Assembly: GCA_963795085.1 (NCBI GenBank)
Contig: CAWCFX010000003.1
Coordinates: 96,001-160,000, forward strand
Source: an uncultured Gemmatimonadales bacterium
Lineage (GTDB): Bacteria; Gemmatimonadota; Gemmatimonadetes; Gemmatimonadales; GWC2-71-9
Direction of reading: 5' to 3'
DNA length: 64,000 bases
Below the pieces are notes generated by a model. It was given only the letters and a program-made list of their open reading frames with translations, did not search any database and had not been told where the DNA came from. A program made the translations under genes and the position numbers. This document shows, piece after piece, positions 1-18,237 of the stretch. The stretch's first letter is position 1, and each line of letters begins with the position of its first letter.

Positions 1-150
1 CTGGACGACGCCTTCCAGGAAATCCGGGGCGTTGGGCAGCGAGGCCGGCCGCTCGTAGCGAAGGATGCGTTCGATCTGAAAGATATCGAGCGCGAACTCC
101 TGGGAACCTACCCGGAAGATGACTACCTGGATTTCGTCTGCTGCCGTCAC
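1..150 (-). CDS. cheW: CheW coupling protein (partial, runs off the window)
   Basis: Manual translation from GTG at 150, which overlaps the upstream [53 protein letters not shown], a typical CheW N-terminus. Confidence 0.85.
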   Translation of the reverse strand, partial: MTAADEIQVVIFRVGSQEFALDIFQIERILRYERPASLPNAPDFLEGVVQ

Positions 151-569
151 GCGGGTGCCTCCGGAATGGTGAGACGATCGCCGACCCTGGCCAGGTCCAG
201 CAGGGGCACCAGGCCGGTTGGAAGCCGGACCACGCCGGATGCCCACGGCAGCTTCTCCCCGGGAGGTGCCTCCATGGCCGTCCCCGCTACGATGGCTTCG
301 GCATCGTCGACCTCGAGGCAGACTTCCCGGCCGCCCAGGGAGAGCACGACCGAGGTTCCCCCGGTATCCCCCGCGCCGGTGCCAATCAAGGTGCCCAGGG
401 CGACCACCGGCAGGATGCGGCCCCGGGCGGCCGTCACTCCGCGGCAGGCAGCGGCGCTCGTCGGTACCGGATGCACCGTCCCCAGCGCCTCCACGGCGAC
501 CACGAACTCGACCGGCAGACCCACCCGCCGGGACCCGAGGCGGACCAGGAGAAACTGCACCCCGCTCAT
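147..569 (-). CDS. cheW: CheW-like protein (divergent)
   Basis: [38 protein letters not shown] and PLLDL match the CheW pattern. Confidence 0.8.
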
Positions 570-1633
570 TGGCGAGCCATCCGGGCCAGGACATCAGTGA
601 CCCGCCGCGCCAGCAGGCCCAGCGGCAGGACGTGGTCCACGCCTCCCGCCTGCACCGCCGCGTTGGGCATCCCGTAGACCGTGGACGTGGAGCGATCCTG
701 GGCCAGTCCGCATCCGCCCGCATCGTGAATGGCTCGAAGCCCCACCGCGCCATCCCGGCCCAGCCCGGTCAGCACCACGCCGACGGTGGCCGGGCCATAG
801 GTATCCGCGACGGAACGAAAGAGCGGATCGGCGGCGGGCCGAACCCCCCAGACCGCAGGAGACTGGTCCAGTACGATGACCGGCCCGCCTTCGCGCATTT
901 CCACTCTCATATGATAATCGCCCGGCGCCACGAAGGCGGTGTCCGCCTGGAGGGGCGCACCGTCCCACGCTTCCACGACGGAGAGCCGGCTCTGTCCATC
1001 CAGCCGTTCGGCCAGTCCGCGGGTAAACGCCGCCGGCATGTGCTGGACGATAAGAATCGCGGCACCCTGCCCCGGCGCCAGCTGGGGCACCACCTCGGCC
1101 AGCGCGCGAGGCCCGCCGGTCGAGGCGGCGATCGCAACGCAGCGGCCGGCGAGCCCCGCGGCGACCAGATCGCGCCGCCCCCGCTGGGGAGGCCGGGCCA
1201 GCACCGGGATCCTGGAGACATCCGCCACCGCCGCCGCGCGGAGGGCCTGCAGCAGCCGGGGACCGAGCCGTTGGAGACCCTCCCGGCTGGGGCGCTGTTC
1301 CTTGTCGACAATCTCCACCGCGCCCAGTTCCAGCGCCCGGATCGCGCCGCTGCTGCCGGCTCCCGCGTGCGCGCTTACCACGACGATGGGGCGCGGAATT
1401 TCCGACATGATGTACCCGATCGCCGCCGGGCCATCCAGTTCCGGCATGTCGAGGTCCATCGTGATCAGGTCGGGAAGGTGCTGGTGCACCTTCTGGAGGC
1501 CATCGTGGCCGTTGCGGGCGGTGGCGGTGACCAGGAACTCACCCGAGGAATTGATGATCTCCGTCAGCACCTGGCGGACCAGGGCGCTGTCGTCGACCAC
1601 CAGGACCCGGAGGACTCTAGAGTCGGTGTTCAC
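566..1633 (-). CDS. cheB: Chemotaxis methylesterase/response regulator CheB
   Basis: REC domain ([15 protein letters not shown]) plus catalytic motifs ASTGGP, VQHMP and TGLGRDG; start re-assigned to GTG at 1633. Confidence 0.95.
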
Positions 1634-2108
1634 TCTGATTGGCCGCTGACCGCACCACGACGGCCCCGTCGGACGGGTAAAACCAGACGGAGCGACCCGA
1701 CTCCCCGCCGACCAGCTCGCCGATGATCGGCACCCCAAGCTGGTTCAGCACGTCCCGGGTGGCCACCACGTTGCGCTCGCCCATCTGGATCGACCCGGGG
1801 GGGGACAGCGCCGCGAACAGGCTGGCCCCGCCGACCAGCCGGGCGCTCACCCGGCGGGGGACCGCACCGAGACCGGTGAGCCGGTCCAGGAGCGCCGGCA
1901 CCGCCCCCTGCGGGGTCTTGGCGGGATTGTCATCCTTCCGCACCAGTGAGCGGGAGGGCAACATGATGTGGGCCATGCCTCCCACCTTCTTGACCGGATC
2001 GTAGAGCACGATCGCGACGCAACTGCCGAGCCCGTAGGTCACCAGCACTTCGCCGCTCACGCCGGTATTCAGGTCGGCGACCCGGACGATGATCTCGCGG
2101 CCCGTCAT
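1617..2108 (-). CDS. cheD: Chemoreceptor glutamine deamidase CheD
   Basis: [23 protein letters not shown] and MGERN motifs. Confidence 0.95.
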
Positions 2109-2926
2109 GCCGGCCGCCGATAGACGCGCTCCCGGGCGTCCACCAGCTCGAGCCGGTCACGCATGGGCCCGAGAATCGTTTCCACCTTGCCCAGCACCAG
2201 GATTCCGCCGGGACGCAGCGATTCGGTAAACAGGGTAAAGAGCCGTTCCTGCATGGCCCGGTCGAAGTAGATCAGCACGTTGCGGCAAACGATGAGGTCG
2301 TAGGGAGCATGGCGGGGAGTATCCCGGGTCAGGTCCAGCCGGTTGACGTGGACCACCCGCCGAATCGGATCGGTAACGAGGCGGCTGCCCGGATCGGCCG
2401 GTTCAGTGTACCGGTCGATGTACTCTTCCGGCGCCTCGCTGAAGGCGCCCAGCGGATAGGCCCCGATGCGGGCCCGGTCGAGGCTGACCCGGTCGATGTC
2501 GGTCGCGTCGATGGCCAGCCGGTGCATCCATTCCGGGTGCCCCGCCTTGAGCGCGACTTCCGCAAACAGCATCGCCAGGGAGTACGGCTCCTCGCCGCTG
2601 GCGCATCCGGCGCTCCAGACCCGGAGCACGCGGCCGGCGTCCCGCCACAGCCCGGCTACGACGTCCTGCTGCAGCCGCTGCCACAGTTCGATGTTGCGGA
2701 AGAACTTGGTGACGTTGATGGTGAGCACATCGGAAAGCTTCTGCAGTTCGTCCGGCGTGCGCTCCAGGATGGCGAGATACTCGTCGTAGGTCGCCACGTT
2801 GTGGGCCCGCATCCGGACCGCGATGCGGCGCTTGAGGCAGCGCGGCTTGTATGCCTCGGTGGAGAGGCCGGCGACTTCGCTGATACGGCGGGTCAACTGG
2901 GCAAAGCTCGCATCGTCCGTGGTCAT
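2105..2926 (-). CDS. cheR: Chemotaxis methyltransferase CheR
   Basis: LTINVTKFFRN, VWSAGCASGEEPYSLAM and CRNVLIYF; start at ATG 2926 overlaps the upstream stop. Confidence 0.95.
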   Translation of the reverse strand: MTTDDASFAQLTRRISEVAGLSTEAYKPRCLKRRIAVRMRAHNVATYDEYLAILERTPDELQKLSDVLTINVTKFFRNIELWQRLQQDVVAGLWRDAGRVLRVWSAGCASGEEPYSLAMLFAEVALKAGHPEWMHRLAIDATDIDRVSLDRARIGAYPLGAFSEAPEEYIDRYTEPADPGSRLVTDPIRRVVHVNRLDLTRDTPRHAPYDLIVCRNVLIYFDRAMQERLFTLFTESLRPGGILVLGKVETILGPMRDRLELVDARERVYRRPA

Positions 2927-4545
2927 GACGCGACGTTCCCCAGGGTTTCCAGATTGGTCCGGGCCAGCTGGTGCCCGGGGTTCAGCACCGTCGCCTGCTG
3001 CCACCAGGCGCGGGCCCGCTCCTGGTCCCGACGGCGAAAGGCGATATTGCCCATCTTGAAATAGAGGTCGTCACCCAGGTCGGGATTGAGTTTGGCGGCC
3101 CGCTCGTAGGCATCGAGAGCCTCGTCGTACCGGCCGGCGCGGTACAGCAGGTCGCCCAGGTTCTTGGATATCTGGGAGTACGACGGCTCCTCCGCCAGCG
3201 CCGATCGGGCCATGACCTCGGCGCCGGCCAGGTCGCCGGTGAGCTCGAGCAGCACCGCCAGGTTATTGCGAATGACGGCGTTCCCGGGGTGGGCCTGGAC
3301 ACCTTCCTGCGCGGTGCGCACCGCGCCGCCGAGGTCGTCCGCGCCGGCCGCCGCCAGCGACGCGGCCCAGAACCAGGTGGCCGGCGGTGGCCGCTCCCCC
3401 CAGACCTCGCGGGCCCGGGCCAGCCGGGCCACCGCCACCCCCGGGTCGCCCCGCTTGAGGGCGGCAATGCCCCAGCTCAGCATGTACCGGGCATCGTCGC
3501 GGGCCCGGCTCACCGCGTCGGCGTAGGCGGCTTCCGCGTCGTCGAGCCGTCCCATCTGCTCCAGCGCGAAGCCCAGATTGTGCAGCACCGAGGGCCGGGC
3601 TCCCCCCAGGTCGGCCGCCTGCCGCAGGCAGGACACCGCCTCGGGCCAGCGGGCTTGCCGGAGAGCGATCAGGCCCAGGTAGAACGCGGCGCTGGGTTCC
3701 CGGGGCCGCAGTTCCGCCACCCGGCGGAACTCCCGCAACGCTTCGTCCAGCATTCCGGTCTTGTAGAAAGCGATCCCCAGGTTCCGGTGCTCGTCCACCC
3801 GGCCTTCGGGCGCCTGGGGTGCCGGGTTCGGCACCGAGGACCCGGTGCGGTGGGCAAACCCGGCCGTGATCAGGCCGTACAGGGCCTTGCCGGCCTCGAA
3901 CTCAATCAGCCCGGAATCCTCGAAGACCTGCTGCACGTCCCGGGATCCATCGAGCAGGGGGAGGATCCGCTCCTGGCTCGGCGACAGCCGCACATCGGAC
4001 TGGGCCAGGTGCTCGCGGTCCAGCGCGAAGATCAGGTCCAGGGCCGGGATTTTTTTCTCGATCAGGCTCCACTCGTCCACCCGGCGGGCGCCTTCCAGGA
4101 GGAGCGACTCCGGGTTGATCTGGACCAGGAAGTCTTCCCGCTCAGGGCGGACCCCCGCCTCGAAGTTGAAAGTCCCCGAGTTCCAGGTGAAAAGGAAGTA
4201 CACCGCTTCCTCGATCTGGAGGCGCATGTATTCCTCCAGCTCTTCACGCGAGATCGCATTGATCTCGACCAGGATCTGACCCAGTTTGGTGTCCCGCTTC
4301 TCGGTCTGCATGTCCACCGCCTGTTGCAGCTGGGCGGCCGAGATGCGGTTGTTCTTCACCAGGATGTCGCCCAGCCGGTCCCGGCGGTTGACGATCGAGG
4401 CGTAGCAGATCTTGCCCAGGTCGAAGTAGATATAGCCGAAGTTGTGGCGGTCGGCGACAGCGAGCAGGCCGGTCTTGCGGCCCAGCGCCAGCAGCTGCAG
4501 CACGTCGGGCAGACTGGCTTCCTTGAGACTCCCCTTGATGGCCAT
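2923..4545 (-). CDS. DUF4388 (PatA_N-like) domain + MshEN-like motifs + TPR protein
   Basis: GSLKEASLPDVLQLL..RKTG, W..GTFNF and LLLEGARRVDEW signature; C-terminal TPRs. Confidence 0.85.
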   Translation of the reverse strand: MAIKGSLKEASLPDVLQLLALGRKTGLLAVADRHNFGYIYFDLGKICYASIVNRRDRLGDILVKNNRISAAQLQQAVDMQTEKRDTKLGQILVEINAISREELEEYMRLQIEEAVYFLFTWNSGTFNFEAGVRPEREDFLVQINPESLLLEGARRVDEWSLIEKKIPALDLIFALDREHLAQSDVRLSPSQERILPLLDGSRDVQQVFEDSGLIEFEAGKALYGLITAGFAHRTGSSVPNPAPQAPEGRVDEHRNLGIAFYKTGMLDEALREFRRVAELRPREPSAAFYLGLIALRQARWPEAVSCLRQAADLGGARPSVLHNLGFALEQMGRLDDAEAAYADAVSRARDDARYMLSWGIAALKRGDPGVAVARLARAREVWGERPPPATWFWAASLAAAGADDLGGAVRTAQEGVQAHPGNAVIRNNLAVLLELTGDLAGAEVMARSALAEEPSYSQISKNLGDLLYRAGRYDEALDAYERAAKLNPDLGDDLYFKMGNIAFRRRDQERARAWWQQATVLNPGHQLARTNLETLGNVAS

Positions 4546-6475
4546 CAGCGCAGGTCCTCCACGATCCGGTCGGCGGAGTCGGGCCAGTCCCAGATCATCT
4601 TCTCGGAACTGCGAACCGTCCCGGAGGGCAAGGCGACCACGCCGCTCACCCGGTTCCCCCCGCTCCGCCTGGGGGGCTTGGGGGCGGACCTTCGAGGAGC
4701 TCGCGGGCGAGCGCGGCGGTGGGCGGCTCCTGGCGGGTTTCGGCGGCGCTCACCACCCGCTGCAGGATCCCCTGCAGCGTCCGCACGGAGTCCACCGACC
4801 GTCCCGCCAGGTATTCTGCCAGCTCCTGATTACCGCCGCCGGTGCCTTGCCGCACCAGACGCTCCAGCACCGCGACCCGCACTTCCCGCTCCGGGGGCGG
4901 CAGGTGCACCACCAACCCCCCCTCAAGGCGGCTGATCAGGCGGGGTTCCACTCCCGTCAGTTCACCCAGCGGCATCGGGCTGGTGAAGACCATCTGCCGG
5001 CCTTCCTTCAACAGGTGGTTGAAGAGCCAGAAGAACTCTTCCTGCGTCCGCTCCTTACTGTGCAGCAACTGGATATCGTCGAGCAGAAACGCGGTCACCC
5101 GGCGATACCGGGATCGCCACCAGGCCACCCGGTCGCGGTCGATGGCCGCGATGAGGTCGTCGACCAGCTCCTGGGTGTTGAGACAGGCCACCAGCGCCCC
5201 ATCGTGCCGGGCCAGCCCGTTGCCGATGGCGTGGAGGAGGTGGGTCTTGCCGGTCCCGCTGGGGCCGACCACCACCAGCGGGTTGTATTTGAGCGCCGGA
5301 TGCTCCACCGCCATGAGCGCCGCGCGTACCGCGATCCGGTTTCCGGGTCCCTCGGCGAAATCGGAGAGTTGCCAGAAAGGCGAGGGCCCCGGCGGCGGGG
5401 TCGCCCCTTCCCGGGCCCGGGCCAGCAGTGCGGCGGCATCATCGACCCGGTCGGGATCGCGGAACACCGCCTCGCCGCCGAGGCTGGCGTCGATGTCCAC
5501 GGCATCGGCCTCGATCGCGCGAAGCCGCTCGACATCCTCCGCAAACTGGCGCAGGGTGGCGTCGGGGTCGGCGGGGGAGTCCTGTTCCAGAAGCGCGCTC
5601 AGCCGGCTGACCCGGTACCCTTCGCCTTCCCACCGCATCACCGCCTCGGCCACCCGGGTGCGCCAGGCCTCCACCTGCTGGGCGACGGTGTGGGAAATCT
5701 CGGACAGGAAGCTGCCGAACTCGTCGGCCTCGGGGGGCGGCGGGGTGACGCCCAGGGGCACCCCGCCGAGCACCACCCGGGCCTGGGCCGGGTCGAGCGG
5801 CTGATCACTCACCGCCTGGAACGCGATCAACCGGTTGAGCGCGCCGATCAGCTCGCGCACGTTGGTGATCGCCAGCGATGCGACCGCTTCCAGCACACCG
5901 GCGGCGAATTCCGCCCGCCGCTCCTCGGCGTGGCGCCGCACGATGGCCACCCGGGTCTCGTAGTCGGGGGCGGCGATGTCGATCACCAGGCCGCCGGCGA
6001 ACCGCTGGATCAACCGCTCGTCCAGTGACTCGATGTCCGCCGGGCTCCGATCGCTGGTCAGGACGATCTGCCGGCTCGCGGTCTGCATCGCGTTGATGAC
6101 CCGGAGCAATTCGGCCTGCATCTCGCGCCGCCGGTCAAGGAACTGGACATCGTCGACCAGCAGCAGGTCCACCTCGGTGAATCGGCGGCGGTAGGCCTCG
6201 CCCTGGCCGGCGGCGACGGCGGCGTGGAAGGACTCCATGAAATCGTCGAGGGTGAGGTACTCGACGGCGAGGGCGGGATTGATCAGCCGCGCGGCATGAG
6301 CTACGGCCATGAGCAGGTGGGTCTTGCCCAGTCCGGGGCCGCTGTAGATGAACAGCGGGTTGTAGGCCACGCCGGGGCTCTCGGCCACCGACTTGGCGGC
6401 CGAGACCGCCAGCCGGTTGGCGGAGCCCACCACGAACGTATCGAAGCGGAACCGGGGATTCAGGTCCGCGGTCAC
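4545..6475 (-). CDS. Tandem DnaA/Hda-like AAA+ ATPase with no domain I or IV; apparent frameshift near 4680 (as sequenced the ORF stops at 4646)
   Basis: Two modules, each with YNPL..G..G.GKTHLL and DD(V/I)Q plus Arg-finger and sensor II regions; the alternative frame ends in a TGA overlapping the next ATG. Confidence 0.85.
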
Positions 6476-7074
6476 TTCAAGGCGCCCCCGGCGGCCAGTT
6501 TCTTGAGCACGGCCTCGCTGATGCCTTTCAAGGTTTCGAACACCCCGCCCCCGTGGAGCGCATCAGCGCTGAAACTCCGCACCATCCGGAAGTTGAGCGC
6601 ATCGTCCAGCTCGGCCTGGGTGAGAATGAGATCCCGCGGCAGGTCCTGCTTGTTGTACTGGAGGACGACCGGGAATGTCCGGACGTCGATACCCTGCTGC
6701 AGGAGATTACCGTGGAGGTTCTGCAGGCTCTCCAGGTTCTCTTCGAAGCGGCGGGCCTGGCTGTCGGCGACGAACACCACGCCGTCGGCGCCCTGCAGGA
6801 CCAGCTGCCGGGTCGCATTGTAGTAGACCTGCCCCGGCACCGTGTAGATCTGGAACCGGGTCTTGAACCCCGAGATCACGCCCAGGTCGATGGGCAGGAA
6901 ATCGAAGAACAGGGTGCGGTCCGTCTGGGTCGCGAGCGATACCATGCGGCCGCGCCGCGATTCCGGCACCCGGCCATACACGTACTGCAGGTTGGTCGTC
7001 TTGCCCGAGCGTCCCGGCCCGTAGTAGACGATCTTGCAGGTGATCTCGCGAGTGGTGAAGTTGACGAGTGACAT
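6472..7074 (-). CDS. mglA: MglA-family small Ras-like GTPase
   Basis: [38 protein letters not shown] and YNKQD. Confidence 0.95.
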
Positions 7075-7107
7075 TCAGTCCGGTCTCTGGGTCACGGCGG
7101 TCTCCGG

Positions 7108-7569
7108 CTATCGGCCGAACAGGGTGCGCAGACTGGTGTTGAGTTCCCGCTCGAAATCGGCGGCCAGCACCTCGCGGGGCTTGTCTTCTCCCGGGGTGGC
7201 GGCCTGCAGCGCCTGCACCAGCCGGCTGAAGAACAGCTGGACCAGTCCCAGGGTGGTTTCCGGCCCGAAGACCACCAGCCCGATCCAGGCCCCGCGCGGT
7301 GTGTCGAAGCGGGCCAGGAAGTGCCCCTGCCGGGTACCCTGGTGAACCATGATCGTGAAGGCCGGCCAGGTCATGGTGCGGGCCAGTTCCTGCGCGGAGG
7401 CGACGATGCCGGCCCCCAGCGCCGCCGCGGACATCACGTCCAGGGCCCGCGTGAACCCGTGCTGGGCAATGACCTGCCCCGACCCGGTCATGATCAGGAC
7501 CAGCCGGGCGGAGGACTCAGCCAGGAAATCATTGAGGGGCTCCACCACCCAGGGCTCGACTGAGCGCAT
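7108..7569 (-). CDS. mglB: MglB-like Roadblock/LC7 protein (putative GAP)
   Basis: Adjacent to mglA; GQVIAQHG, VVFGPETTLGLVQL and an amphipathic C-terminal helix FERELNTSLRTLF. Confidence 0.8.
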   Translation of the reverse strand: MRSVEPWVVEPLNDFLAESSARLVLIMTGSGQVIAQHGFTRALDVMSAAALGAGIVASAQELARTMTWPAFTIMVHQGTRQGHFLARFDTPRGAWIGLVVFGPETTLGLVQLFFSRLVQALQAATPGEDKPREVLAADFERELNTSLRTLFGR

Positions 7570-7916
7570 CAGGAGCCGCCCTCCGCGACCCGCGCCATTT
7601 CCAGCCGCGCCCGCCCCACGTTGACGCCCTTGTCCGCAATCACGATGAGCAGAAGCCCGGCGCCAGCCGGGGCCAGCAACAGCGCGCCACCGGTCGCCTG
7701 CAGGTGCAGAAACCCGGCGCTCCCGCCGCGGGCGGTCATCGCCGCCGTCTCCAGTTTCCGGGCCAGGCTGCTCGCCAACGCGGCCAGGGCGGCGCTCTCG
7801 ACGTCTTCCCGAATCGATTCCGCGACCACGATGCCGTCATCCCGGCTGGCCAGCATGGCCCCGCGGACGCCGGCGATGCCGGTGAGACGGTCCAGGGCCG
7901 CCGGTGTCAGGGTCAT
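7569..7916 (-). CDS. Roadblock/LC7 protein (MglC-like paralog)
   Basis: From ATG 7916: LDRLTGIAGVRGAMLASRDDGIVVAE..ALAALASSL..VNVGRARLEM. Confidence 0.8.
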   Translation of the reverse strand: MTLTPAALDRLTGIAGVRGAMLASRDDGIVVAESIREDVESAALAALASSLARKLETAAMTARGGSAGFLHLQATGGALLLAPAGAGLLLIVIADKGVNVGRARLEMARVAEGGS

Positions 7917-8791
7917 GCGCCTGCCTCCAACCAGCGGCGGGCGGCTTCCAGCGCCCGCCCGGTCCCGATGGCTACCCGTCCCATTGGCATCGAGGGATCC
8001 CGCATTACCATCAGGAGCGTTTCCGCCGTCGGCGGCACCAGGAAGTAGTTGGCGGCGCCGGTTTCCACCGCGATACTCCGCCATTCCCCGAGGTCCAGTA
8101 TCCGGGCCGCTCGAGCCGCCTCCCGGGAAACGCCCGCGAGTTCCGCCGCCACCTGGTCGGCGACGCCTTCCCCCAGTTCCCCCAGGGATCCGAGCAGGCG
8201 CATCCCGGCGGAATCCACCAGCAACAGTCCGTCGTCCTCCAGCACCGCATCGCCGGCCGCCGCGGGCCGGGGAGAGGAGGGCGGGATGGACGGTTGCTCG
8301 ACCTCGAAGCGAATGGCGGCCGGCGCGGCGGGAGTCCCGATCCGCGGGGGTTCCTCCGGGACCGGCGTGGCCGGCTCCGCTTCCCGCGCGGCGAGTTGGG
8401 CCCTGACCCGCTCGAGGGCGCTCTCCACCTGGGCATCGCCCGGCAAGTCCGCCGCCGCCGCATTCAGATGGCGAAGCGCCGACGGAAGGTCGCCCGCTTT
8501 CCAGAACAGGAAGGCGAGGCCCTTGTGAGCGCCGCCATGGGCTGGGTCCAGCCGGAGCGTCATGTCCCACTCATCGAACGCCCCTTCGAGGTCCTGGTGA
8601 TCCACCAGCACCCGGGCATACAGGTCGTGGGCCTCCGGGAGATTGGGATAGCGCACCAGCCCCTGGAGGGCCACCTTGGCGGCGGGCTCGAGCCGGCCGG
8701 CCTGGCGCAGGGCTTCCCCCAGCCGGAGAAACACCAGGCTGGTGGAATCGGCGGCCAGTTCGGCGGTCATCCGGCGGATGTCGTCAGTCAC
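7913..8791 (-). CDS. TPR + Roadblock/LC7 fusion protein
   Basis: N-terminal TPRs (FLRLGEALRQAG), a Pro-rich linker, then a roadblock domain (LLLVDSAGMRLLG..LDLGEW..PMGRV); GTG start at 8791. Confidence 0.75.
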   Translation of the reverse strand: MTDDIRRMTAELAADSTSLVFLRLGEALRQAGRLEPAAKVALQGLVRYPNLPEAHDLYARVLVDHQDLEGAFDEWDMTLRLDPAHGGAHKGLAFLFWKAGDLPSALRHLNAAAADLPGDAQVESALERVRAQLAAREAEPATPVPEEPPRIGTPAAPAAIRFEVEQPSIPPSSPRPAAAGDAVLEDDGLLLVDSAGMRLLGSLGELGEGVADQVAAELAGVSREAARAARILDLGEWRSIAVETGAANYFLVPPTAETLLMVMRDPSMPMGRVAIGTGRALEAARRWLEAGA

Positions 8792-9929
8792 CCGGCCCTC
8801 GCAGTGCCTGGTCCAGAGTCGCGACCGCTTCTCGCACCGCCCGGACCGTGGCGGAATGCGCCGCCTCTTCGGGCGGCATGCCGGCGGTGGCGTTCCAGCG
8901 GTCGCAGGCGTCCGTGGCCTCGCGGAAGCGACCCTGGGCGGCCAGGCAGAGGCCCCACAACCGCCAGGCGGGGATAAAATCCGGGTCCAGCTGGAGCGCC
9001 CGGTGAATCGCGGTCCCGGCCTCGGCGTAGCGGCTGCTTCGCAGCAGCGTCCGCCCCAGCACGACATGGGCCAGCGGCTGGTCGGGATAGTGGGTCGCGG
9101 CTTCCTCCGCGATCTGGCGCGCGACATCGGTTTCCCCGTTGAACAGCTCGTTCTCCGCCCGGCTGATCATGATGGCCAGTTCCCTCCCGCCAGGCTGCTC
9201 CCGGGGGTGCTGGGCCGGGTCCTCGAGCTGGATGATGCCGGCGCTGGCCAGCCCGAAGAGAGTCTTGGCGACCTCGAACTCGGAGCGCACCAGCGCCAGC
9301 GAAATACCCCGTACGTCCTGGGCTCCGTCGATCGCCGCCAGCACTTCCCACTCGAACGGGATCAGGTCCAGCGGCGCCTCGGACGAGGGGAGGGCCAGCC
9401 GTGGCAGGATGCCGAGGTGAGGAATCTTGGTTTCGATGCGCGACCACTCGTCGATCCGGCGTGCCGCTTCCATGACCAGCGCCTCGGTGGTGATCCGGAT
9501 ATCCGCCTCGGCGGGAGACTCGGCCACTTCGCCTTCCTCGAATGAGAAGTAGCCCTCCGCCCAGCTCAGCAATTCGAAAATGACTTCCTCGACCTGGGAA
9601 CGGACCTGCCGGTCCAGTTCACGCCGGGTGATGGAGCCCATGGCGATCAGGATCTCACCCAGCCGGCGGGGGTCGCCATTCTGCTGCATGGCCCGGGAAC
9701 GGGTCAGGTCCTCTTCCGAGATCTTGCCGGCCCGAAGCAGGAGGCCACCCAGCGGGTGCGGGTTGCTGCGGATCTCGGCGCCAATCACGGCGCCCTTCTC
9801 GAAAAACACCATCCCCGCGTTCTGGCGGATCTCGGAGCGCACCCTGAGCACCCCGGTCTTCCGGCTCAGGTCCAGCAGCTGGAAGACATCGTGGATGCCC
9901 AGTTCGCGGAGAGGGCCTTCGATCGCCAC
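8784..9929 (-). CDS. DUF4388 domain + MshEN-like motifs + TPR protein
   Basis: AIEGPLRELGIHDVFQLLDLSRKTG, WAEGYFSF and MEAARRIDEW; C-terminal TPRs; GTG start at 9929. Confidence 0.85.
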   Translation of the reverse strand: MAIEGPLRELGIHDVFQLLDLSRKTGVLRVRSEIRQNAGMVFFEKGAVIGAEIRSNPHPLGGLLLRAGKISEEDLTRSRAMQQNGDPRRLGEILIAMGSITRRELDRQVRSQVEEVIFELLSWAEGYFSFEEGEVAESPAEADIRITTEALVMEAARRIDEWSRIETKIPHLGILPRLALPSSEAPLDLIPFEWEVLAAIDGAQDVRGISLALVRSEFEVAKTLFGLASAGIIQLEDPAQHPREQPGGRELAIMISRAENELFNGETDVARQIAEEAATHYPDQPLAHVVLGRTLLRSSRYAEAGTAIHRALQLDPDFIPAWRLWGLCLAAQGRFREATDACDRWNATAGMPPEEAAHSATVRAVREAVATLDQALRGPGD

Positions 9930-9930
9930 G

Positions 9931-12627
9931 TCAGGATGCCCTGGACACGAGAATGCGTTCCAGGTCACGGGCCGACCGTGCCTCGTTCCTTGCCAGCTGC
10001 GCGAAGGAGGAGGCCGGGTCGGCCTGGACCACTTTTTCCCACAGCTGCAGCGCCTGGTGATAGCGGCGCATCCGGGCCAGCGCGACCCCCCCGTAATACA
10101 ATGCCCCGGTGCAGTCCGGCGCGAACTTGAGGATCCGGCTGAATGCTTCCAGCGCCCGTTCCGGGCGGCCATCGTCGATCAGGGTGCGGCCCAGCAGCTG
10201 CAGCGCTTCGAGGTCGTAGGGATCGTGAATCAGGAGCGAGACCAGGACATCCGTGGCGGCCGGTCGCGCCTCGGTCCGCCGCAGCAGGTCGGCCAGCGCC
10301 AGCCCGGCTTCCACGTAGGTGGGCAGCAGATCGAGCGCCCGTTCATAGGCCGCGCGGGCGCCGGTCCAGTTCTCCCGTTTCTCTTCCAGCGCTCCCAGTT
10401 CACACCAGACCTGGGCCAGCGACCCGTCCAACTGGAGCGCGCCCTGGTAGGCCTCGATGGCGGCGGCGGTTTCGCCCAGCCGCGCGGCGATGTTCCCCTG
10501 CAGCTGCAGCAGGTCGGGCCGGCCGGGAGCCCGGGCCTGGGCCTCCCGGGCCAGGTCCATGGCACCGACCGGGTTGCCCGCGGCCAGCCGGGTGCGCGCG
10601 GCGGCGACGAGCACCTCCACGTTGTCCCGGCAGCGCGGGATCATCGATTCCACGATGGATGCCGCTTCGCTTGCGCGGCCCAGGGCGAGCAGCGCCCGGA
10701 CTTCGCCCAGGGCCGCCCCGTCGTTGCTCCCCAGCTCCTTGCGAGCCTCGCGGTACCGTTCCAGCGCTTCGCCATGCAGGCCTCGCCGGGCGAAGATATG
10801 TCCGGCCAGCACCGCCGCCTCGGCGGGCGAGGCTCCCCGCCCGAGGGCCCGGTCCAGTTCGGCGGAGGCCCGCTCCAGCAACCCCTTGGCCACGCACTCG
10901 CGCGCCAGGGCCAGCGGATCTTCGCCGGTCGGCCCCGCCGTGGCGGGGGCCGGGACGGCGGGCGCGAGTTCCCGAAAGACCTGATCCAGGAGGCGCTGAT
11001 CGAACGTGAAATCCTCGCCCAGTTCCTCGGTGACGACATCAGCTGAAATCTCCGGAACGATGGCGATGGTCGGGTCTTCGTACTGGAGGTCGATCGTCAG
11101 CGAGTACTTCTGGGGAACATAGAACGGCTCCAGTTCCAGCGCCCGCTTGGTTTCCCGGAGAGCTCCATCGAACTCGCCCAGCTGGCTCAGGGTGAAACTC
11201 AGGTTGTAATGGGCCGACGCGCTCTCGGGATCGGATTCGACGGCCCGGGCGAAGGCATTGCGCGCATCGGGAAAGCGCTTGAGTTCAGTGAGAACCAGCC
11301 CGATCCCATTCCACGCGATGGCGTTGCCCTCCGACTGGGCCAGGACCTGCCGGTACGCCTCCAGGGAGAGTTGCAGCCGGCGCCGCTGCAGGAGCAGCAG
11401 CCCCAGGTTCAGCTGGGCCGTGATGAGGTCGCGCCTGCAGCGGAGGGCCTGGTGAAAGGATTCCTGGGCATCGTCCGAGCCGGTGTCACCGCTCTGCAGG
11501 ACCCCCAGGTTGTTCCAGCTGAGGGCATAGTTGGGATCAAGGGCGACCGCTTTGCGATAGGCGGCCGTGGCTTCCTCCCGGCGGCCGGCCTGGTGCAGGC
11601 AGACGCCGCGCTCGTTTTCCAGCTTGGGGGAGTCGGCGAACTCGGCCACCAGTCGATCATACAACTCCAGCGCCGCGCCCAGGTCCCGGCGCAGGAGGTG
11701 CACCTCGGCCATGGCCTGGAGCGTCAGGCGCCGGTCCTCCCCGCTCTCCAGGGCCAGCCGGTACTCGCGCAGCGCTTCGACATAATAGCCCTTCTGCCGG
11801 AACGCGAGGCCGAGATTGTAATGCGCCAGCGTGGATCCGCCGGCCAGGGATGGCCGCCGCAGTTGGTCGCTGCCTTCGGCGATGACCCGGGCGCCTCCGG
11901 TCCTGCGCCGGAGCGACAGGTTAGTATGGGCCCGGGCGAAGGTGGGATTGAGCGCGATGGCCCGCTTGGTCGCCGCCCGGGCCGCCTCGTGCTGGCCCAA
12001 ATCGCCGTACAGGAACGCCAGCAGATAGTGGGCGTCGGCGTTGTCCGGGTTGAGTCCCACCGCCTCCTGCAGGATGCTCCGGGCCTGGTCGTTGAGGCCG
12101 CGGTTGTACAGGGCTTCCCCGTAGTAGAACAGGGCCAGCGAGCTTTCCGGGTCCAGGTCCCGGGCCTCGCCGAACCGGTCGCAGGCCTCTTCCAGGTGGC
12201 CACTGGCCTTGAGCGCGAGGCCGAGCTGAATCAGGGCAGCCACGTCGCCGGGGGACCGCGCGAGCAGGGCTTCGAACTCCCGGACGGCGTCTTCGTGGTG
12301 GCCCAGCGACGCGTAGGTGCGGGCCAACTCCCACCGGGCATCCCGGTCGTCGGGAGCCCGGCGCACCCGCTCGTGCAGTTCCGCCACCCGGCGATCGTAG
12401 TACCCGGTGTTGCGGTAGGCGACCTCCAGGTTGGCCTGGGCCACCTGCATCTTGGGATCGAGTTCCAGCGCCCGGGAAAACGCGGCGATGGCCTCGGCGA
12501 CCAGGCCTTTCTGGTGGTAGAGGACGCCCAGGTTGTTATGGGCGCCGGCGTCGGAAGGATCGATCCGGCGGGCAAAAGAACGCAGGACCGCGAGGTCGCG
12601 TTCCGAGAGGACCGAGCCGCCGGACAT
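9931..12627 (-). CDS. Large TPR-repeat protein (898 aa)
   Basis: Many canonical TPR units (AHNNLG, AHYNLG, WNNLG, ALELDP); no signal peptide. Confidence 0.9.
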   Translation of the reverse strand: MSGGSVLSERDLAVLRSFARRIDPSDAGAHNNLGVLYHQKGLVAEAIAAFSRALELDPKMQVAQANLEVAYRNTGYYDRRVAELHERVRRAPDDRDARWELARTYASLGHHEDAVREFEALLARSPGDVAALIQLGLALKASGHLEEACDRFGEARDLDPESSLALFYYGEALYNRGLNDQARSILQEAVGLNPDNADAHYLLAFLYGDLGQHEAARAATKRAIALNPTFARAHTNLSLRRRTGGARVIAEGSDQLRRPSLAGGSTLAHYNLGLAFRQKGYYVEALREYRLALESGEDRRLTLQAMAEVHLLRRDLGAALELYDRLVAEFADSPKLENERGVCLHQAGRREEATAAYRKAVALDPNYALSWNNLGVLQSGDTGSDDAQESFHQALRCRRDLITAQLNLGLLLLQRRRLQLSLEAYRQVLAQSEGNAIAWNGIGLVLTELKRFPDARNAFARAVESDPESASAHYNLSFTLSQLGEFDGALRETKRALELEPFYVPQKYSLTIDLQYEDPTIAIVPEISADVVTEELGEDFTFDQRLLDQVFRELAPAVPAPATAGPTGEDPLALARECVAKGLLERASAELDRALGRGASPAEAAVLAGHIFARRGLHGEALERYREARKELGSNDGAALGEVRALLALGRASEAASIVESMIPRCRDNVEVLVAAARTRLAAGNPVGAMDLAREAQARAPGRPDLLQLQGNIAARLGETAAAIEAYQGALQLDGSLAQVWCELGALEEKRENWTGARAAYERALDLLPTYVEAGLALADLLRRTEARPAATDVLVSLLIHDPYDLEALQLLGRTLIDDGRPERALEAFSRILKFAPDCTGALYYGGVALARMRRYHQALQLWEKVVQADPASSFAQLARNEARSARDLERILVSRAS

Positions 12628-12634
12628 TCGGCCG

Positions 12635-13255
12635 TCAGGTCAGCCGGATGGCGTCGAACACCGCGCGGAGCGACGCGAGGTCGGGCATCAGCAGGAAGTG
12701 GCCGCGGAGACCCTTGGCTTCATCGGTGAACTGGAATTCGGTTTCCAGGCAGAAGACAAAGTCCCGTTCGTACCCGAAGTTGAGGTACGTCGTGGTGAGG
12801 ATCGCCCCGGAGAGGTCGATCACCAGCGAGGGCACCGAGGGAAGCAGCATCATCCCCATGAAATCGCTCAGCGCGGTGAGGTAGGCGCTGCTCAGAATGT
12901 TGCCGGCCTCCTTGAGCCCGGATTCTTCCATGATGCCGAATTCGACGGTGGTGCCGATGGGGCGCCGCAGCAGGATGTCGCACAGCATCCGGGCCGAGTC
13001 CCGCGGAAAAATCACCATGGTCCGGCCGGTCAGATCGCCCATCATGTGCATGAGCACCGCGGCGATCACGTCGTCCGGCTTGCCCAGGACGTCGGCGACC
13101 TGTTCCAGCCGGGTGATGTTCACCTCGGGCACCGTGATCATGATCTTGCGGCTGGTCATCTGCGACAACGCCGTCGCGGCGTGACCGGCCCCGATATTGG
13201 CCACCTCGCGGAGGGCGTCCAGTTGCAGCGCCTGCAAGTTCCGTATGTCGTCCAT
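12635..13255 (-). CDS. cheC: CheY-P phosphatase CheC
   Basis: Two ExxN motifs (DALREVANIG, KEAGNIL); ATG at 13255 has a GGAG RBS. Confidence 0.92.
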   Translation of the reverse strand: MDDIRNLQALQLDALREVANIGAGHAATALSQMTSRKIMITVPEVNITRLEQVADVLGKPDDVIAAVLMHMMGDLTGRTMVIFPRDSARMLCDILLRRPIGTTVEFGIMEESGLKEAGNILSSAYLTALSDFMGMMLLPSVPSLVIDLSGAILTTTYLNFGYERDFVFCLETEFQFTDEAKGLRGHFLLMPDLASLRAVFDAIRLT

Positions 13256-13293
13256 TGAATACTCCATTCCGGAAGCCCGCCAACCCACCCCTG

Positions 13294-13319
13294 CCCGGTA
13301 CTCAGTCCTGAGTACCGGG
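13294..13319. repeat. 12-bp perfect inverted repeat in the cheA-cheC spacer
   Basis: CCCGGTACTCAG-tc-CTGAGTACCGGG, with no U-tract. Confidence 0.7.
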
Positions 13320-13322
13320 TGC

Positions 13323-15218
13323 CTACATCAGCGCTGCCGCATCCAGGATGAGCGCCGGTTCACCGTCACCCAGGATGGTGGCCCCGGAGAACACCGGCAG
13401 CATGCCCCGGGGCGCCTCGAACGGCTCCACCACGATCTCCTGCTGGCCCAGCAGCGCGTCCACCACCAGGGCGCTCTTGCGCTCACCCGATTCGAGGATG
13501 ATGGCCGGGGGCCGCGCCGGGGCCGGGTCGCCGTTCACCCGGAGCAGGTCCCGGAGCCGGGTGGTGGGAATTACCCGATCGCGCAGGACCAGCGCCTCGC
13601 GGCCGCCGAGCGAGGTGCTCCGCCCGGGATCCCATTCGATGGTCTCGGCCACGTGGGCGAGGGGCACCGCATAGCGCTCCCGACCGACCCGGGTGAGCAG
13701 GACCCGGAGCACCGCCAGGGTGACCGGGAGCCGCAGCGTGATCGAGGTTCCCCGCCCCGGCTCCGATTCGATCGCGGCCGCCCCGCCGAGGGCCCGCACC
13801 CGGGTCAGTACAACATCAATACCCACCCCGCGTCCCGACACGTCGGTCACGGCGGCGGCGGTGCTGAACCCGGGCCGCCCCATCACTTTGAGGAGGATGT
13901 CGTCAGTCAGCTCGCCAGTCACCGATTCCATCAGGCCATCCTGCACCGCCCGTTCGGCAATCTTCCTGCGGTCGATCCCGCGGCCATCGTCGGTGACCCG
14001 GACCGCGACGCCACTGCGGTCGCGCGCCGCCGAAAGTACGATCCGTCCCATCTCGTGCTTGCCGGCCCGCCGCCGGTCGGCCGGCGACTCGATCCCGTGG
14101 TCCACCGCGTTCCGGAGCAGGTGCAGCAGCGGATCGCCGATCTCGTCCAGGATGGCCCGGTCCAGTTCGATGTCGCCGCCTTCGATCAGCAGGTCCACCC
14201 GCTTGCCCAGCTGGCGGGCGAGGTCGCGCACCAGGCGCGGATAGCGGTCGAAGACCTGCCAGACCGGGGAGAGACGGACCTGGATGACCTCGGTCTGCAT
14301 CTCACTCACCAGCCGGCTGATCCGCGCGCTCACCGCCTCGAGATCGGGGTTTGGGGCGTGCGCCACCACCTCGGCCAGCCGGCCCTTGGCCACGACCAGT
14401 TCGCCCATGTGGTTCATCAGGGCATCGAGCCGGCGCAGGTCCACCCGGATGTGCCGGGGGCCGCCCGGCGCGGCGGGATCTTCGACCGGCGCCGGGACCG
14501 GCGCCTCGCCGATGGAAACGGTATCGACGTCGCCGGCGCCCCGGATGGCTGCCTCCACCACCTGGTCGGTCACATCGGTATGGAGCCGGAACGAAAAGCG
14601 CCCGTCGAAATCCTGCTTTTCCAGGTCGGACAGCGCGGGCCGCACACCGGTCACGTGGCCCAGCGCCTCGGCCCGCTTGAGGGCCAGGGCGGCGCGGCCG
14701 CCCCGCATGACCGCCTCCGAGCGAATCGCCACCCGGACCAGCCGGCCGGTGGCGACCGGCTCGGCCGTCCCCGCGGCCGTGGCCTCGATGGTCTGCCGGG
14801 CGGAGCGCACCGCGCGCATTTCGCCGGTGCGGGACTGGGCCTGGCTGGCGGCCGCGTCGAGGTCGGCGATCAGGGCGGCAAAATCGAGCCGATCATCGCG
14901 CCCCCCGGTGGCCTCCTCCAACGACTGCTCCAGGGTGTCCACCGCCCGGAAGAGCAGGTCGATCAGGTCCGCCTCGGCCGATGCTACCCGTTCCCGGAGC
15001 AGCGAGAGCAGGCTTTCCGCGCGGTGAGCCAGCGCCGCAAGGTTGGCATAGCCCATGGTGGCCGCCATCCCCTTGAGCGTGTGCATCGCGCGGAAGATCC
15101 CCACCACCGGCTCCGCGGCGTGGGGCGAGCGTTCAAGTTCCAGCAGCAGGCGGTTGCACGCCTGGAGATGCTCACGGCCTTCCGCGAGAAAGAGGTTGGC
15201 GTACCGGGAAAGGTCCAT
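13323..15218 (-). CDS. cheA: Chemotaxis histidine kinase CheA
   Basis: HPt (FRAMHTLKG), HATPase (HLLRNAVDHG, DDGRG, GRGVG) and a C-terminal CheW domain. Confidence 0.97.
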   Translation of the reverse strand: MDLSRYANLFLAEGREHLQACNRLLLELERSPHAAEPVVGIFRAMHTLKGMAATMGYANLAALAHRAESLLSLLRERVASAEADLIDLLFRAVDTLEQSLEEATGGRDDRLDFAALIADLDAAASQAQSRTGEMRAVRSARQTIEATAAGTAEPVATGRLVRVAIRSEAVMRGGRAALALKRAEALGHVTGVRPALSDLEKQDFDGRFSFRLHTDVTDQVVEAAIRGAGDVDTVSIGEAPVPAPVEDPAAPGGPRHIRVDLRRLDALMNHMGELVVAKGRLAEVVAHAPNPDLEAVSARISRLVSEMQTEVIQVRLSPVWQVFDRYPRLVRDLARQLGKRVDLLIEGGDIELDRAILDEIGDPLLHLLRNAVDHGIESPADRRRAGKHEMGRIVLSAARDRSGVAVRVTDDGRGIDRRKIAERAVQDGLMESVTGELTDDILLKVMGRPGFSTAAAVTDVSGRGVGIDVVLTRVRALGGAAAIESEPGRGTSITLRLPVTLAVLRVLLTRVGRERYAVPLAHVAETIEWDPGRSTSLGGREALVLRDRVIPTTRLRDLLRVNGDPAPARPPAIILESGERKSALVVDALLGQQEIVVEPFEAPRGMLPVFSGATILGDGEPALILDAAALM

Positions 15219-15222
15219 CCGG

Positions 15223-15585: not shown

Positions 15586-15644
15586 GAAAGCTCCTTTCCT
15601 TGACCTGTCCAGCGTCCCCCTGCCCGGAAGAGAAGGGGGAACGA

Positions 15645-18224: not shown

Positions 18225-18237
18225 GGCTTTCCGTCCG

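Follow-up and report, generated by a model that had tools for sequence, protein, structure and literature searches.

The window analysed here, a 64,000-nucleotide stretch from an uncultured Gemmatimonadales bacterium, contains a conserved minus-strand operon that includes a gene for a protein with two DnaA domain III modules (the double-DnaA gene). The operon order is CheW-like, CheY, CheA, CheC, TPR, PATAN-TPR, TPR-Roadblock, Roadblock, MglB and MglA, followed by the double-DnaA gene, PATAN-TPR, CheR, CheD, CheB and CheW, and 33 loci share this order, as do three further families. The locus is flanked by an ileS-lspA-rluD segment on one side and by the mraW/ftsI/mur cluster on the other. Its features are as follows:

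147..16583, minus strand: the whole conserved operon, in the gene order given above
2923..4545, minus strand: PATAN (DUF4388)-TPR protein of 540 aa, in which residues 57-108 hold a c-di-GMP-binding motif of the MshE type
4545..4679, minus strand: out-of-frame remainder of the double-DnaA gene, 44 codons plus TGA, with the tail motif from 4604
4646..6475, minus strand: the double-DnaA ORF as assembled, 609 aa, consisting of an N-terminal DnaA domain III module, a helical linker domain and a C-terminal DnaA domain III module
4680..4684, minus strand: probable frame-break site, a five-C run (five G on the plus strand)
4682..5383, minus strand: C-module, residues 365-598, a second and more divergent DnaA domain III
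5396..5728, minus strand: linker domain, family-specific and helical, about residues 250-360
5768..6469, minus strand: N-module, residues 3-236, a DnaA domain III with lid
6472..7074, minus strand: mglA, for a 200-aa Ras-like GTPase, in translational coupling with the double-DnaA gene
7108..7569, minus strand: MglB-like Roadblock/LC7 protein, 153 aa, its position conserved across loci

An earlier note described the protein as a pair of DnaA domain III modules with a helical linker between them, and Pfam bears out the pair: PF00308 (Bac_DnaA) matches in two stretches (E 4.2e-94), with scores of 184.7 bits for the N-module and 133.6 bits for the C-module when these are scanned separately. The best score of each module is with a DnaA profile. 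TIGR00362 gives 272.6 bits for the N-module (profile positions 102-334) and 208 bits for the C-module, both under the curated cut-off of 343.9, while the 475 bits of the whole protein exceed this cut-off because two module scores are summed. Domain I (DnaA_N) is absent from the Pfam list at E <= 0.01, the DnaA profile match beginning at position 102, and domain IV (Bac_DnaA_C, PF08299) gives no match in the protein at the same threshold. All of the motifs quoted earlier are found in the translation. The N-module carries Walker A GPGLGKTH (residues 46-53), Walker B LLVDDVQ (105-111), box VII (152-159) and sensor II NVRELIG (205-211), and the C-module carries Walker A (404-412), Walker B LLDDIQ (464-469), box VII (510-517) and sensor II SVRTLQG (563-569). 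The N-module is 43.7% identical to the genome's own DnaA and 42.1% to E. coli DnaA, the C-module 33.5% and 41.3%, respectively, and the modules are 22-24% identical to E. coli Hda.

A structure model was made for P0002, an intact close relative (643 aa, 87% identical to the window protein), with a mean pLDDT of 86.6. The best PDB match, for the N-module, is B. subtilis DnaA domain III (8bv3_A, TM 0.96, rmsd 1.3 A), while the arrangement of the modules relative to each other is not confident (pTM 0.48). Both modules are predicted to carry the additional helices that initiator-clade AAA+ proteins insert between strands 2 and 3: in the model, helices 76-88 and 92-100 lie between strands 71-75 and 104-108 of the first module, and helices 434-446 and 450-458 lie between strands 429-433 and 462-466 of the second. 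The modules thus resemble DnaA domain III (PDB 8BV3, 8BTG, 2Z4R, 1L8Q/3R8F) in their AAA+ fold with lid, Walker A and B, box VII, sensor II and insert. In contrast to DnaA, the protein lacks domains I, II and IV, has no adjacent dnaN or origin, coexists with a normal DnaA in the same genome, and combines two modules in one chain with a new helical domain and a WxWP tail, within a signalling operon.

The linker domain comprises roughly 110 residues between the modules, preceded by a disordered Pro-rich spacer and ending in a conserved PPPGPS. It is modelled with a pLDDT of 90.1 and has 17 invariant columns among 21 sequences, and no Pfam or NCBIfam entry matches it. A Foldseek search finds no similar fold at E <= 0.001, and the best VIA-align hit (EzrA 4uy3_A, Z 6.3, rmsd 4.0 A over 113 residues) is below the level that is meaningful for helical bundles.

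The double-DnaA protein is not the replication initiator. The only Bac_DnaA_C match in the genome is in a separate 464-aa DnaA on contig C4, directly beside dnaN (C4:207905-208258), and the double-DnaA protein is therefore not the genome's only DnaA; both the exclusion of an initiator role in the earlier note and its observation that no dnaN adjoins the gene hold. Exactly one DnaA_C match was found in each of five other Gemmatimonadota genomes tested (5/5). Origin by recent duplication of the phylum's own dnaA was considered and rejected: the N-module is similarly near to its own and to the E. coli DnaA, and it falls outside the Gemmatimonadota DnaA clade in a quick tree of modules, DnaA and Hda (short search, SH-aLRT support only). 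The phylogeny that the earlier note had proposed thus places the modules outside this clade, while the tree gives no settled deep order among N-module, C-module, DnaA and Hda.

Among 33 sequences, the catalytic positions are strongly conserved in both modules: K51 and D108 of the N-module are each present in 33/33 and R207 in 31/33, and K410 and D466 of the C-module are each present in 33/33 and R565 in 30/33. The arginine fingers differ, R516 of the C-module being kept in 28/33 and R158 of the N-module in 17/33. Degeneration of motifs in homologs, which the earlier note had named as a point against its reading, is thus not seen at the ATP sites but is partly seen at the N-module finger. The C-module finger persists in variants in which the ATP site of that module is dead, which is what a donor of the finger would show. 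This would suit an Hda-like regulator, which co-assembles with true DnaA and uses its arginine finger to trigger or block hydrolysis of DnaA-bound ATP, so that polarity or motility state gates initiation. The relationship of both modules to DnaA domain III (42-44% identity for the N-module and 33-41% for the C-module, with a TM of 0.96) and the adjoining cell-division genes also fit such a role, and if it were true, replication control would be coupled to polarity through this protein. However, the Hda profile TIGR03420, whose cut-off is 194.8 bits, gives 83.3 and 81.7 for the modules and 159.8 for the full-length protein, and NF005982 and NF006571 give at most 52 bits against cut-offs of 268-300; the identity to E. 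coli Hda is low, as given above. Inspection by eye finds no QL[SD]LF-like clamp motif at the N-terminus, a weak test in which the consensus is presumed. The gene is missing from many Gemmatimonadota genomes, while DnaA, itself examined in 6, is presumed to be universal. The conserved neighbours are all signalling or polarity genes, and the modules are not nested in the phylum's DnaA clade. We therefore regard an Hda-like role as decidedly unlikely.

Hda itself consists of one module (about 230 aa) and binds the clamp through an N-terminal motif. The double-DnaA protein resembles Hda and HdaA as a DnaA-derived AAA+ protein devoid of DNA-binding domains, in which the arginine finger is predicted from sequence to be the best-kept trans-acting residue, and differs from them in scoring far below the Hda profile cut-offs and in its polarity and chemotaxis context in place of a replication context. 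It also belongs to the same initiator/loader AAA+ branch as DnaC, DnaI and IstB, with weak matches to PF01695 (82.2 bits) and NF038214 (106.7 bits). The latter is however well below its cut-off of 200, DnaC NF005931 reaches 40 against 357, and no helicase-binding or transposase partner is present at the locus.

The absence of domain IV is no proof of a DNA-free protein, because domain III of DnaA binds ssDNA alone, as a helical filament (PDB 3R8F). The protein could accordingly act on nucleic acid by forming a DnaA-like ssDNA filament through domain III, for instance when DNA is taken up or processed in connection with type IV pili. Compatible with this are the two inserted helices of both modules, which follow strand 2 and precede strand 3, and four PilT-family matches over cut-off in the genome. 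Against it, the B. subtilis DnaA isoleucine in 'efInsi', which we take to be an ssDNA-contacting position, aligns with a histidine ('sfHaav') in P0002, and the corresponding column in the family is occupied by H in 12, R in 9 and a gap in 6 of 33 sequences. Furthermore, nuclease, helicase, recombinase and competence genes are all absent from the conserved neighbourhood, and the IstB and DnaC profiles score far under their cut-offs. A function on nucleic acid therefore appears highly improbable. A defence system was also considered and rejected, since PADLOC matches are at the P-loop level only (at most 28.7 bits).

The C-terminus of the family consists of a disordered spacer running into a conserved WxWP peptide. 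The tail motif, EKxVWxWP...DRhhEE, is in frame in 31/31 relatives that reach the 3' end of the gene; among 37 sequences, its K is invariant and its E, W and P are each present in at least 90%. A six-frame regular-expression search of the genome finds the motif in the double-DnaA gene only. In the window the tail is intact but out of frame (4679-4545), and the C5 run at 4680-4684 is one base short compared with relatives; homology to the relative at locus L005 resumes in the other frame from the AAG at 4679, and the tail's TGA stop overlaps the ATG of the PATAN-TPR gene (TGATG). The extent of 4545..6475 given in the earlier note is thus right about where the gene ends in relatives (4545), but the assembled ORF stops at 4646 and the last 44 codons are in another frame; its uninterrupted reading had overlooked both the break and the conserved tail.

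Either the assembly is wrong at the break or the gene has mutated there very recently. A programmed -1 slip at GGGGGGA (about 4650-4660) was rejected as unnecessary, because homology in the other frame already starts upstream, at the AAG at 4679. Contigs from 4 sequencing runs were compared with the site: none spans 4636-4683, and one matches 4462-4629 exactly and ends there. Of the 12 runs listed for this check, none of them RNA, the best shares 0.18 of the sampled words. If the break is real, the organism makes a 609-aa protein that ends before the conserved tail, or decay of the gene has begun, and this copy would then be devoid of the docking peptide proposed below. The assembled ORF does end at 4646 with the tail in another frame, the site is a homopolymer run, where true slippage mutations also arise, and a further locus, L034, is frame-broken in the same gene at a different low-complexity spacer. 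However, all 44 downstream codons, every conserved motif residue and the TGATG junction are intact, the tail is in frame in all 31 relatives, and the other 11 operon genes each give one collinear best match to relatives with no sign of breakage. Both broken copies come from assemblies with very long contigs (6 contigs for this genome and a 3.86-Mb chromosome for L034), a pattern that suggests the homopolymer errors of long-read assemblies. A real break is thus possible though somewhat unlikely, and the out-of-frame peptide is more likely to reflect a homopolymer error than biology.

The genes flanking the double-DnaA gene are highly constant. The GTG start (6475-6473) overlaps the TGA of mglA (6474-6472), as had been noted, and a 4-nt overlap of this kind occurs in 21/28 loci in which both genes are called; of the remaining 7, three are at -1, +3 and +4 nt and four are ORF-calling artefacts. 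The coupling to mglA previously claimed is found here and mglA lies directly upstream in 35/37 loci, but the most constant neighbour is the PATAN-TPR gene, which lies directly downstream in 38/38. The MglA protein contains the P-loop, intrinsic arginine, TxPGQ and NKxD motifs, which we take to be the MglA signature, and the corresponding stretches, NKQD among them, are invariant in 20 sequences, and its profile matches are weak (Arf PF00025, 28.4 bits with a cut-off of 22.3; TIGR00231 under cut-off). The MglB-like protein likewise gives weak matches only (NF052242, 34.8 bits with a cut-off of 200; PF03259, 17.3 with a cut-off of 23). The PATAN-TPR protein matches PF14332 (126.9 bits) and NF053729 (44.2 bits, over the cut-off of 38).

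By its linker domain, the double-DnaA family is present in 199/301 sampled Gemmatimonadota genomes, and it is seen only in those Gemmatimonadota families that also give MglA matches; in families f6 and f9-f12, the linker domain is found in 0/45 genomes and MglA in 2/45. Among distant members, an organism name is attached to 1/10 sequence clusters, and is Gemmatimonadales. Judged from their sequences, deep-branching variants show which parts may be dispensable. The C-module of family f7 has its Walker A and B destroyed and no lid, with RLRxRF intact; the lid is missing in f4; and in f5 and f8 the C-module is absent while the N-module, linker and tail motif are retained. In f7 the gene is paired with PATAN-TPR, with no mglA, mglB or che neighbours, and the sole MglA-like gene (58% identical) is located elsewhere, and the roughly 9.5 kb to its left and right give no operon-query match. 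The protein therefore cannot depend strictly on MglA as a partner.

The reading that we favour, at slightly better than even chances, makes the protein a switch or scaffold that is driven by ATP, has no part in replication and belongs to the MglA/PATAN-TPR polarity module, which in this organism is wired to a Che pathway. Of the two readings offered in the earlier note, that of a signalling scaffold derived from the DnaA fold agrees with all of the context evidence, whereas the Hda-like regulator gains no positive support. The double-DnaA protein would serve as an ATP-dependent switch or assembly platform in the MglA/MglB-Roadblock-PATAN/TPR module. The N-module would be the conserved nucleotide engine, and the C-module would mainly provide an arginine finger to the N-module ATP site, within or between chains. 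DnaA protomers pair head to tail through the arginine finger; the corresponding geometry in trans is one that we infer here, because the module arrangement in the model is not confident. ATP binding and hydrolysis would set the conformational or oligomeric state of the protein, and the C-terminal peptide may serve for docking, with the TPR region of the neighbouring PATAN-TPR protein as its most plausible partner. MglA-GTP, and c-di-GMP via the PATAN-TPR protein, would feed into or read out this state. Two observations touch on c-di-GMP: the PATAN-TPR neighbour passes NF053729, and the giant proteins P0201 and P0206 fuse MshEN to DnaA-III modules. The position beside cell-division genes would also suit a cell-cycle role.

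A complex was predicted for the L005 protein with its MglA, GTP and 2 ATP, with a score of 0.36, compared with 0.01 for the best of 3 controls; contacts agree to at least 52% across runs, and the partner pLDDT is at least 77. The score mark is passed by 116/157 solved complexes and 2/215 mismatched pairs, and the passes scoring 0.60 or under comprise 18/157 solved complexes and both passing mismatches. The predicted complex is thus a weak pass, of a kind more often wrong than right unless the pairing is likely beforehand, and lends weak support to contact with MglA.

A more specific version of the switch, offered tentatively and rather unlikely in its full form, is an initiator-type AAA+ ATPase working off DNA. 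ATP-bound protomers would pair or polymerise head to tail via the arginine finger, in the manner of DnaA, into a platform at one pole of the cell held through the WxWP tail and the PATAN-TPR protein, and slow hydrolysis tuned by MglA-GTP and c-di-GMP would dismantle it, such that a DnaA-style ATP/ADP clock times polarity switching in place of replication.

The MglA/Roadblock/TPR/PATAN neighbourhood resembles those of the Myxococcus MglA accessory proteins (MglB, MglC, RomR/RomX and SgmX) and of the cyanobacterial PATAN pili regulators, for neither of which, to our knowledge, has a DnaA-type AAA+ ATPase been described. A published study (PMC4316618) associates MglA/MglB with PATAN proteins, and PATAN response regulators are reported to contact the pilus motor of cyanobacterial type IV pili (10.1101/2021.06.11.447907). 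'DnaA' has 0 occurrences in the text of PMC4316618. Among the papers listed by literature searches, none is on the double-DnaA protein. A related architecture is that of the giant proteins P0201 and P0206 (1876-1990 aa; MshEN + DnaA-III ... DnaA-III), which likewise have two DnaA domain III modules, no Bac_DnaA_C match in a Pfam scan and a link to c-di-GMP sensing, but lack the family linker and tail (chance-level BLAST), their modules being separated by about 1200 residues.

The known roles of DnaA-family ATPases are to initiate replication, to regulate the initiators (Hda) and to help helicases or transposases, and MglA-type polarity modules have, as far as we know, been described so far as GTPase, GAP and GEF systems. 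If the favoured reading is true, a phylum-wide DnaA-branch ATPase devoid of a DNA-binding domain would be a clear case of an initiator ATPase recruited to signalling, and an ATP-driven component would be added to MglA-type polarity modules. The variants found in nature, with one module, with a second module that is dead but keeps its finger, or with the full tandem, form a series of ready-made mutants in which the use of the ATP site and the finger can be compared.

The studied gene lies between mglA and a PATAN-TPR gene, and its start codon (GTG) and the stop codon of mglA overlap in the sequence GTGA.

4646-6475, (-) strand: studied ORF, GTG at 6475, TGA at 4646, 609 aa as assembled

PF00308 (Bac_DnaA) matches the 609-aa product twice (E 4.2e-94), and neither DnaA_N nor Bac_DnaA_C is detected in it (Pfam, E ≤ 0.01), as the earlier note had predicted from the sequence; all eight motifs quoted there are found in the translation. 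The DnaA model of NCBIfam also gives two matches, the best of which (residues 3-236) covers DnaA profile positions 102-335 of 437, corresponding to domain III alone. The 121 residues between the two modules (referred to here as the linker) match no family in the Pfam and NCBIfam scans. The source genome (3.89 Mb in 6 contigs) contains a sole Bac_DnaA_C match, located on contig C4 in a DnaA of 464 aa, complete with domains I to IV, with dnaN directly downstream. Since this normal DnaA is encoded, the studied protein is not the genome's only DnaA, the finding that would have weighed most against the earlier assignment as a non-initiator. In database sources the protein is annotated as "chromosomal replication initiator protein DnaA" or "DnaA/Hda family protein", names that are misleading because it lacks domains I and IV and occurs in a polarity/chemotaxis context.

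Relatives are ∼643 aa long and end in a C-terminal peptide with the consensus ...REKxVWxWPxxxDRLIEE, in which Lys is invariant and Glu, Trp and Pro are conserved in at least 90% of 37 sequences. The 609-aa ORF terminates ahead of this peptide, which is present and perfectly conserved in the window (33 residues) in another frame, with its TGA overlapping the start codon (ATG) of the following gene at 4545. The earlier placement of the gene at 4545..6475 therefore gave the real gene end, while missing the frame break by which the ORF stops at 4646. Aligned at the DNA level to its four closest loci, the window is shorter by 4 nt (three loci) or 1 nt (the fourth), with all of the differences in the Pro-rich spacer. 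Homology to one compared locus, L005, resumes in the second frame from the AAG at 4679, which places the missing base in a C run.

4680-4684, (-) strand: C5 run with missing base, L005 homology in second frame from 4679

The tail is in frame in 31/31 relatives reaching the 3' end. Contigs from four public sequencing runs do not span the break. A real mutation truncating this particular copy is the less probable explanation of the break, since the frame downstream is intact, the break falls in a homopolymer, and very long contigs also characterise the assembly of the only other frame-broken copy (L034); for the same reasons, the comparison of sequences points to an assembly error as the probable cause. 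In L034 (6001-7997 of OZ252244.1, a complete-chromosome MAG), the orthologue passes from frame 1 (residues 1-223) to frame 3 (residues 252-596) in the low-complexity spacer that follows the N-module (the first DnaA domain III), suggesting either that long-read MAGs suffer homopolymer errors or that the spacer is mutable.

An AlphaFold2 model was built on P0002, an intact close relative (87% identical), using an alignment of 37 sequences. The mean pLDDT of 86.6 and the pTM of only 0.48 indicate that the single domains are confidently predicted but their mutual arrangement is not. The best solved match of the model is domain III of B. subtilis DnaA (8bv3_A; TM 0.96 normalised to target, rmsd 1.3 Å over 234 columns, 40% identity). 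Initiator-type AAA+ proteins are marked by a two-helix insert between strands 2 and 3, which is kept in both modules of the model. The linker domain is modelled as a confident helical bundle (pLDDT 90.1), for which structure comparison found no specific fold relative, while residues 239-259 and 603-643 are predicted to be disordered, save for a short helix in the tail motif.

A word-indexed search found at least 120 relatives (63-87% identical), and the organism-named sources among the matches listed are all Gemmatimonadota. Full-length two-module forms extend down to 32-35% identity among the matches listed in an exhaustive search. Atlas rows 1-6 (593-663 aa) and one shorter row are labelled Gemmatimonadota, and three further short rows comprise one without a recorded taxon, one Pseudomonadota and one Actinomycetota. 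Within the phylum, the linker query matches 199/301 sampled genomes, distributed among families f1-f12 as follows: f1 121/125, f2 54/69, f3 3/3, f4 4/6, f5 1/1, f6 0/23, f7 11/47, f8 4/4 and f9-f12 0/22. MglA is found in 232/301 genomes (E ≤ 1e-40), including 2/23 in f6, 22/47 in f7 and 0/22 in f9-f12, and most sampled genomes have a second MglA-like match. Both tallies count four unpublished genomes (G057, G182, G097 and G157), all positive; excluding these, the linker is present in 195/297 and MglA in 228/297. One genome, G107, has the linker and no MglA at E ≤ 1e-40, and the MglA adjacent to its studied gene is very divergent (35% identity).

In 33 Gemmatimonadota loci, scored for gene order as far as each contig extends, the studied gene is preceded by genes for TPR, PATAN-TPR, TPR-Roadblock, Roadblock, MglB and MglA proteins and followed by PATAN-TPR, CheR, CheD, CheB and CheW; four further loci from the same scan are ordinary DnaA genes from other phyla. 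The window operon opens further upstream with genes for a CheW-like protein, CheY, CheA and CheC. Seven additional loci from distant genera and families were compared. The upstream MglB-MglA pair is kept in families f4, f5 and f8 and in g11, a genus of the window's family, while two f7 loci carry the studied gene and PATAN-TPR alone, between ileS-rluD and a peptidase-MA gene. The single MglA-like gene of the f7 genome (58% identical) is located elsewhere, with no operon partners detected nearby. Overall, mglA is directly upstream in 35/37 loci and PATAN-TPR directly downstream in 38/38, making PATAN-TPR the more constant partner of the studied gene.

Comparison of the operon flanks (window 16090-21492, (-) strand; locus L042, C3:80001-96000; and locus L064) places the operon between ileS-(dksA-like)-lspA-rluD and a TPR/peptidase-MA segment, followed by mraW-ftsI-murE-murF. 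These flanks recur in f7, where ileS has DivIVA and a YggS-like gene upstream of it, with nothing but the AAA+ gene and PATAN-TPR in between; either acquisition of the Che and Mgl genes around this pair or their loss from it must therefore have occurred. In two loci of genus g11 (L069 and L070), the adjacent MglA is 35-40% identical to that of the window, compared with about 61% for MglB and about 50% for the AAA+ protein, which suggests that the GTPase has evolved rapidly or been replaced inside an otherwise conserved operon. Downstream of PATAN-TPR, these two loci contain no CheR/D/B/W matches for about 7 kb.

Gene boundaries need care in this DNA of 68-70% G+C. The longest ORFs for Roadblock (7569-8570), TPR-Roadblock (7913-9127) and PATAN-TPR (8784-10172), all on the (-) strand, overlap by hundreds of bases. 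Since matches to relatives in the 333-aa Roadblock ORF are confined to approximately residues 163-330, the true starts of these overlapping ORFs are probably well downstream of the first start codons. Both PATAN (DUF4388)-TPR proteins of the operon (2923-4545 and 8784-10172, (-) strand) contain paired RLGxxL...Q-type repeats within the PATAN domain, those of the 462-aa protein (8784-10172) being read from the sequence by eye. The 540-aa protein (2923-4545, (-) strand) passes NF053729, the MshE-type c-di-GMP-binding motif (44.2 bits, cut-off 38), suggesting that c-di-GMP may be an input to the polarity module. Contigs C1 and C6 of the genome contain four PilT-family matches above the TIGR01420 cut-off, four other secretion-ATPase matches that fall below this cut-off, and a single FliG match, making type IV pili and the flagellum both candidate outputs of the Che/MglA module.

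Conservation was assessed in 33 sequences representing clusters at ≤ 50% identity, comparing the N-module with the C-module (the second DnaA domain III).

Conservation of ATPase sites in the two modules (33 sequences)
Walker A Lys: N-module K51, 33/33; C-module K410, 33/33
Walker B Asp: N-module D108, 33/33; C-module D466, 33/33
Sensor II Arg: N-module R207, 31/33; C-module R565, 30/33
Box VII arginine finger: N-module R158, 17/33; C-module R516, 28/33

Of the N-modules, 20/33 retain the sensor I Asp of DnaA, and Asp or Asn occupies this position in only 8/33 C-modules. More informative are the deep-branching variants, which retain different parts of this architecture. Those of f5 and f8 consist of the N-module, linker and tail motif without the C-module, the f5 N-module having an intact box VII (RLLSRF). 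In f4 the C-module lacks its lid, and both f7 proteins have a C-module with Walker A and B destroyed, the lid gone, and a box VII of RLRTRF or RLRSRF. Judging from these variants, the N-module ATP site, helical domain and tail peptide form the constant core, with the arginine finger the most persistent C-module feature.

The N-module shares 43.7% identity with the DnaA of its own genome and 42.1% with E. coli DnaA, and the C-module 33.5% and 41.3%, respectively; the modules are 31.1% identical to each other, and each is 22-24% identical to E. coli Hda. A quick maximum-likelihood tree (SH-aLRT support only, midpoint root) separates 33/33 N-modules from the remaining sequences by one branch (support 90) and 33/33 C-modules by another (94), with corresponding sub-clades in the two sets, and groups six Gemmatimonadota DnaAs with other DnaAs, apart from the modules. 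This topology is consistent with a single ancient fusion, after which the two modules descended together.

Other arrangements of DnaA domain III were also observed. P0201 (1876 aa) and P0206 (1990 aa) begin with an N-terminal MshEN c-di-GMP receptor domain, followed by a canonical-looking DnaA domain III and, after ∼1200 residues without Pfam matches, a second; Bac_DnaA_C is not among the Pfam matches listed. Judging from these domain matches, they represent a second, independent two-module architecture, tied to c-di-GMP and without a DNA-binding domain. P0263 (1356 aa), with 5 matched stretches in the exhaustive search, has one DnaA domain III (residues 1019-1178) and zinc ribbons (PF13248, PF12773) at its end.

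Scanned alone, the N-module (residues 1-240) scores 272.6 bits against DnaA and 83.3 bits against Hda, and the C-module (360-609) 208 and 81.7 bits, respectively; the two Hda scores are below the cut-off of 194.8 bits. These scores, the patchy distribution inside the phylum and the uniformly signalling-type neighbours make an Hda-like regulator of DnaA unlikely, despite the close relationship of the modules to DnaA, the trans-acting finger used by Hda itself, and the cell-division genes adjoining the locus. A role in binding ssDNA, for which there is no contextual support, is more improbable still.

The comparisons above show the domain anatomy, the conservation pattern and the gene partnerships; as to mechanism, we infer instead that the studied protein serves the polarity module as an ATP-dependent switch or assembly platform. 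ATP would be bound and hydrolysed by the N-module, with the C-module, where present, giving an arginine finger in trans, head-to-tail like DnaA protomers; in single-module forms the finger would be supplied between molecules. The disordered spacer would present the WxWP peptide to a partner, the obvious candidate for docking being the TPR region of the co-translated PATAN-TPR protein, and MglA-GTP and c-di-GMP may modulate or read the ATPase state. A complex predicted from the L005 protein, its own MglA, GTP and two ATP is graded "weak support" (score 0.36, best of 3 controls 0.01), with runs agreeing in at least 52% of contacts and a partner pLDDT of at least 77. The fold-score mark is reached by 116/157 solved complexes and 2/215 mismatches, but scores ≤ 0.60 reaching it include only 18/157 solved complexes plus both passing mismatches, so that this prediction is a slight nudge rather than evidence of binding.

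A survey of prokaryotic Ras-like GTPases (PMC4316618) describes PATAN genes as neighbours of MglA; "DnaA" occurs 0 times in its main text. No paper on such a DnaA-type protein was found in the literature searched. We class the studied protein as an AAA+ domain of the DnaA family placed in a new architecture and a putative new role.
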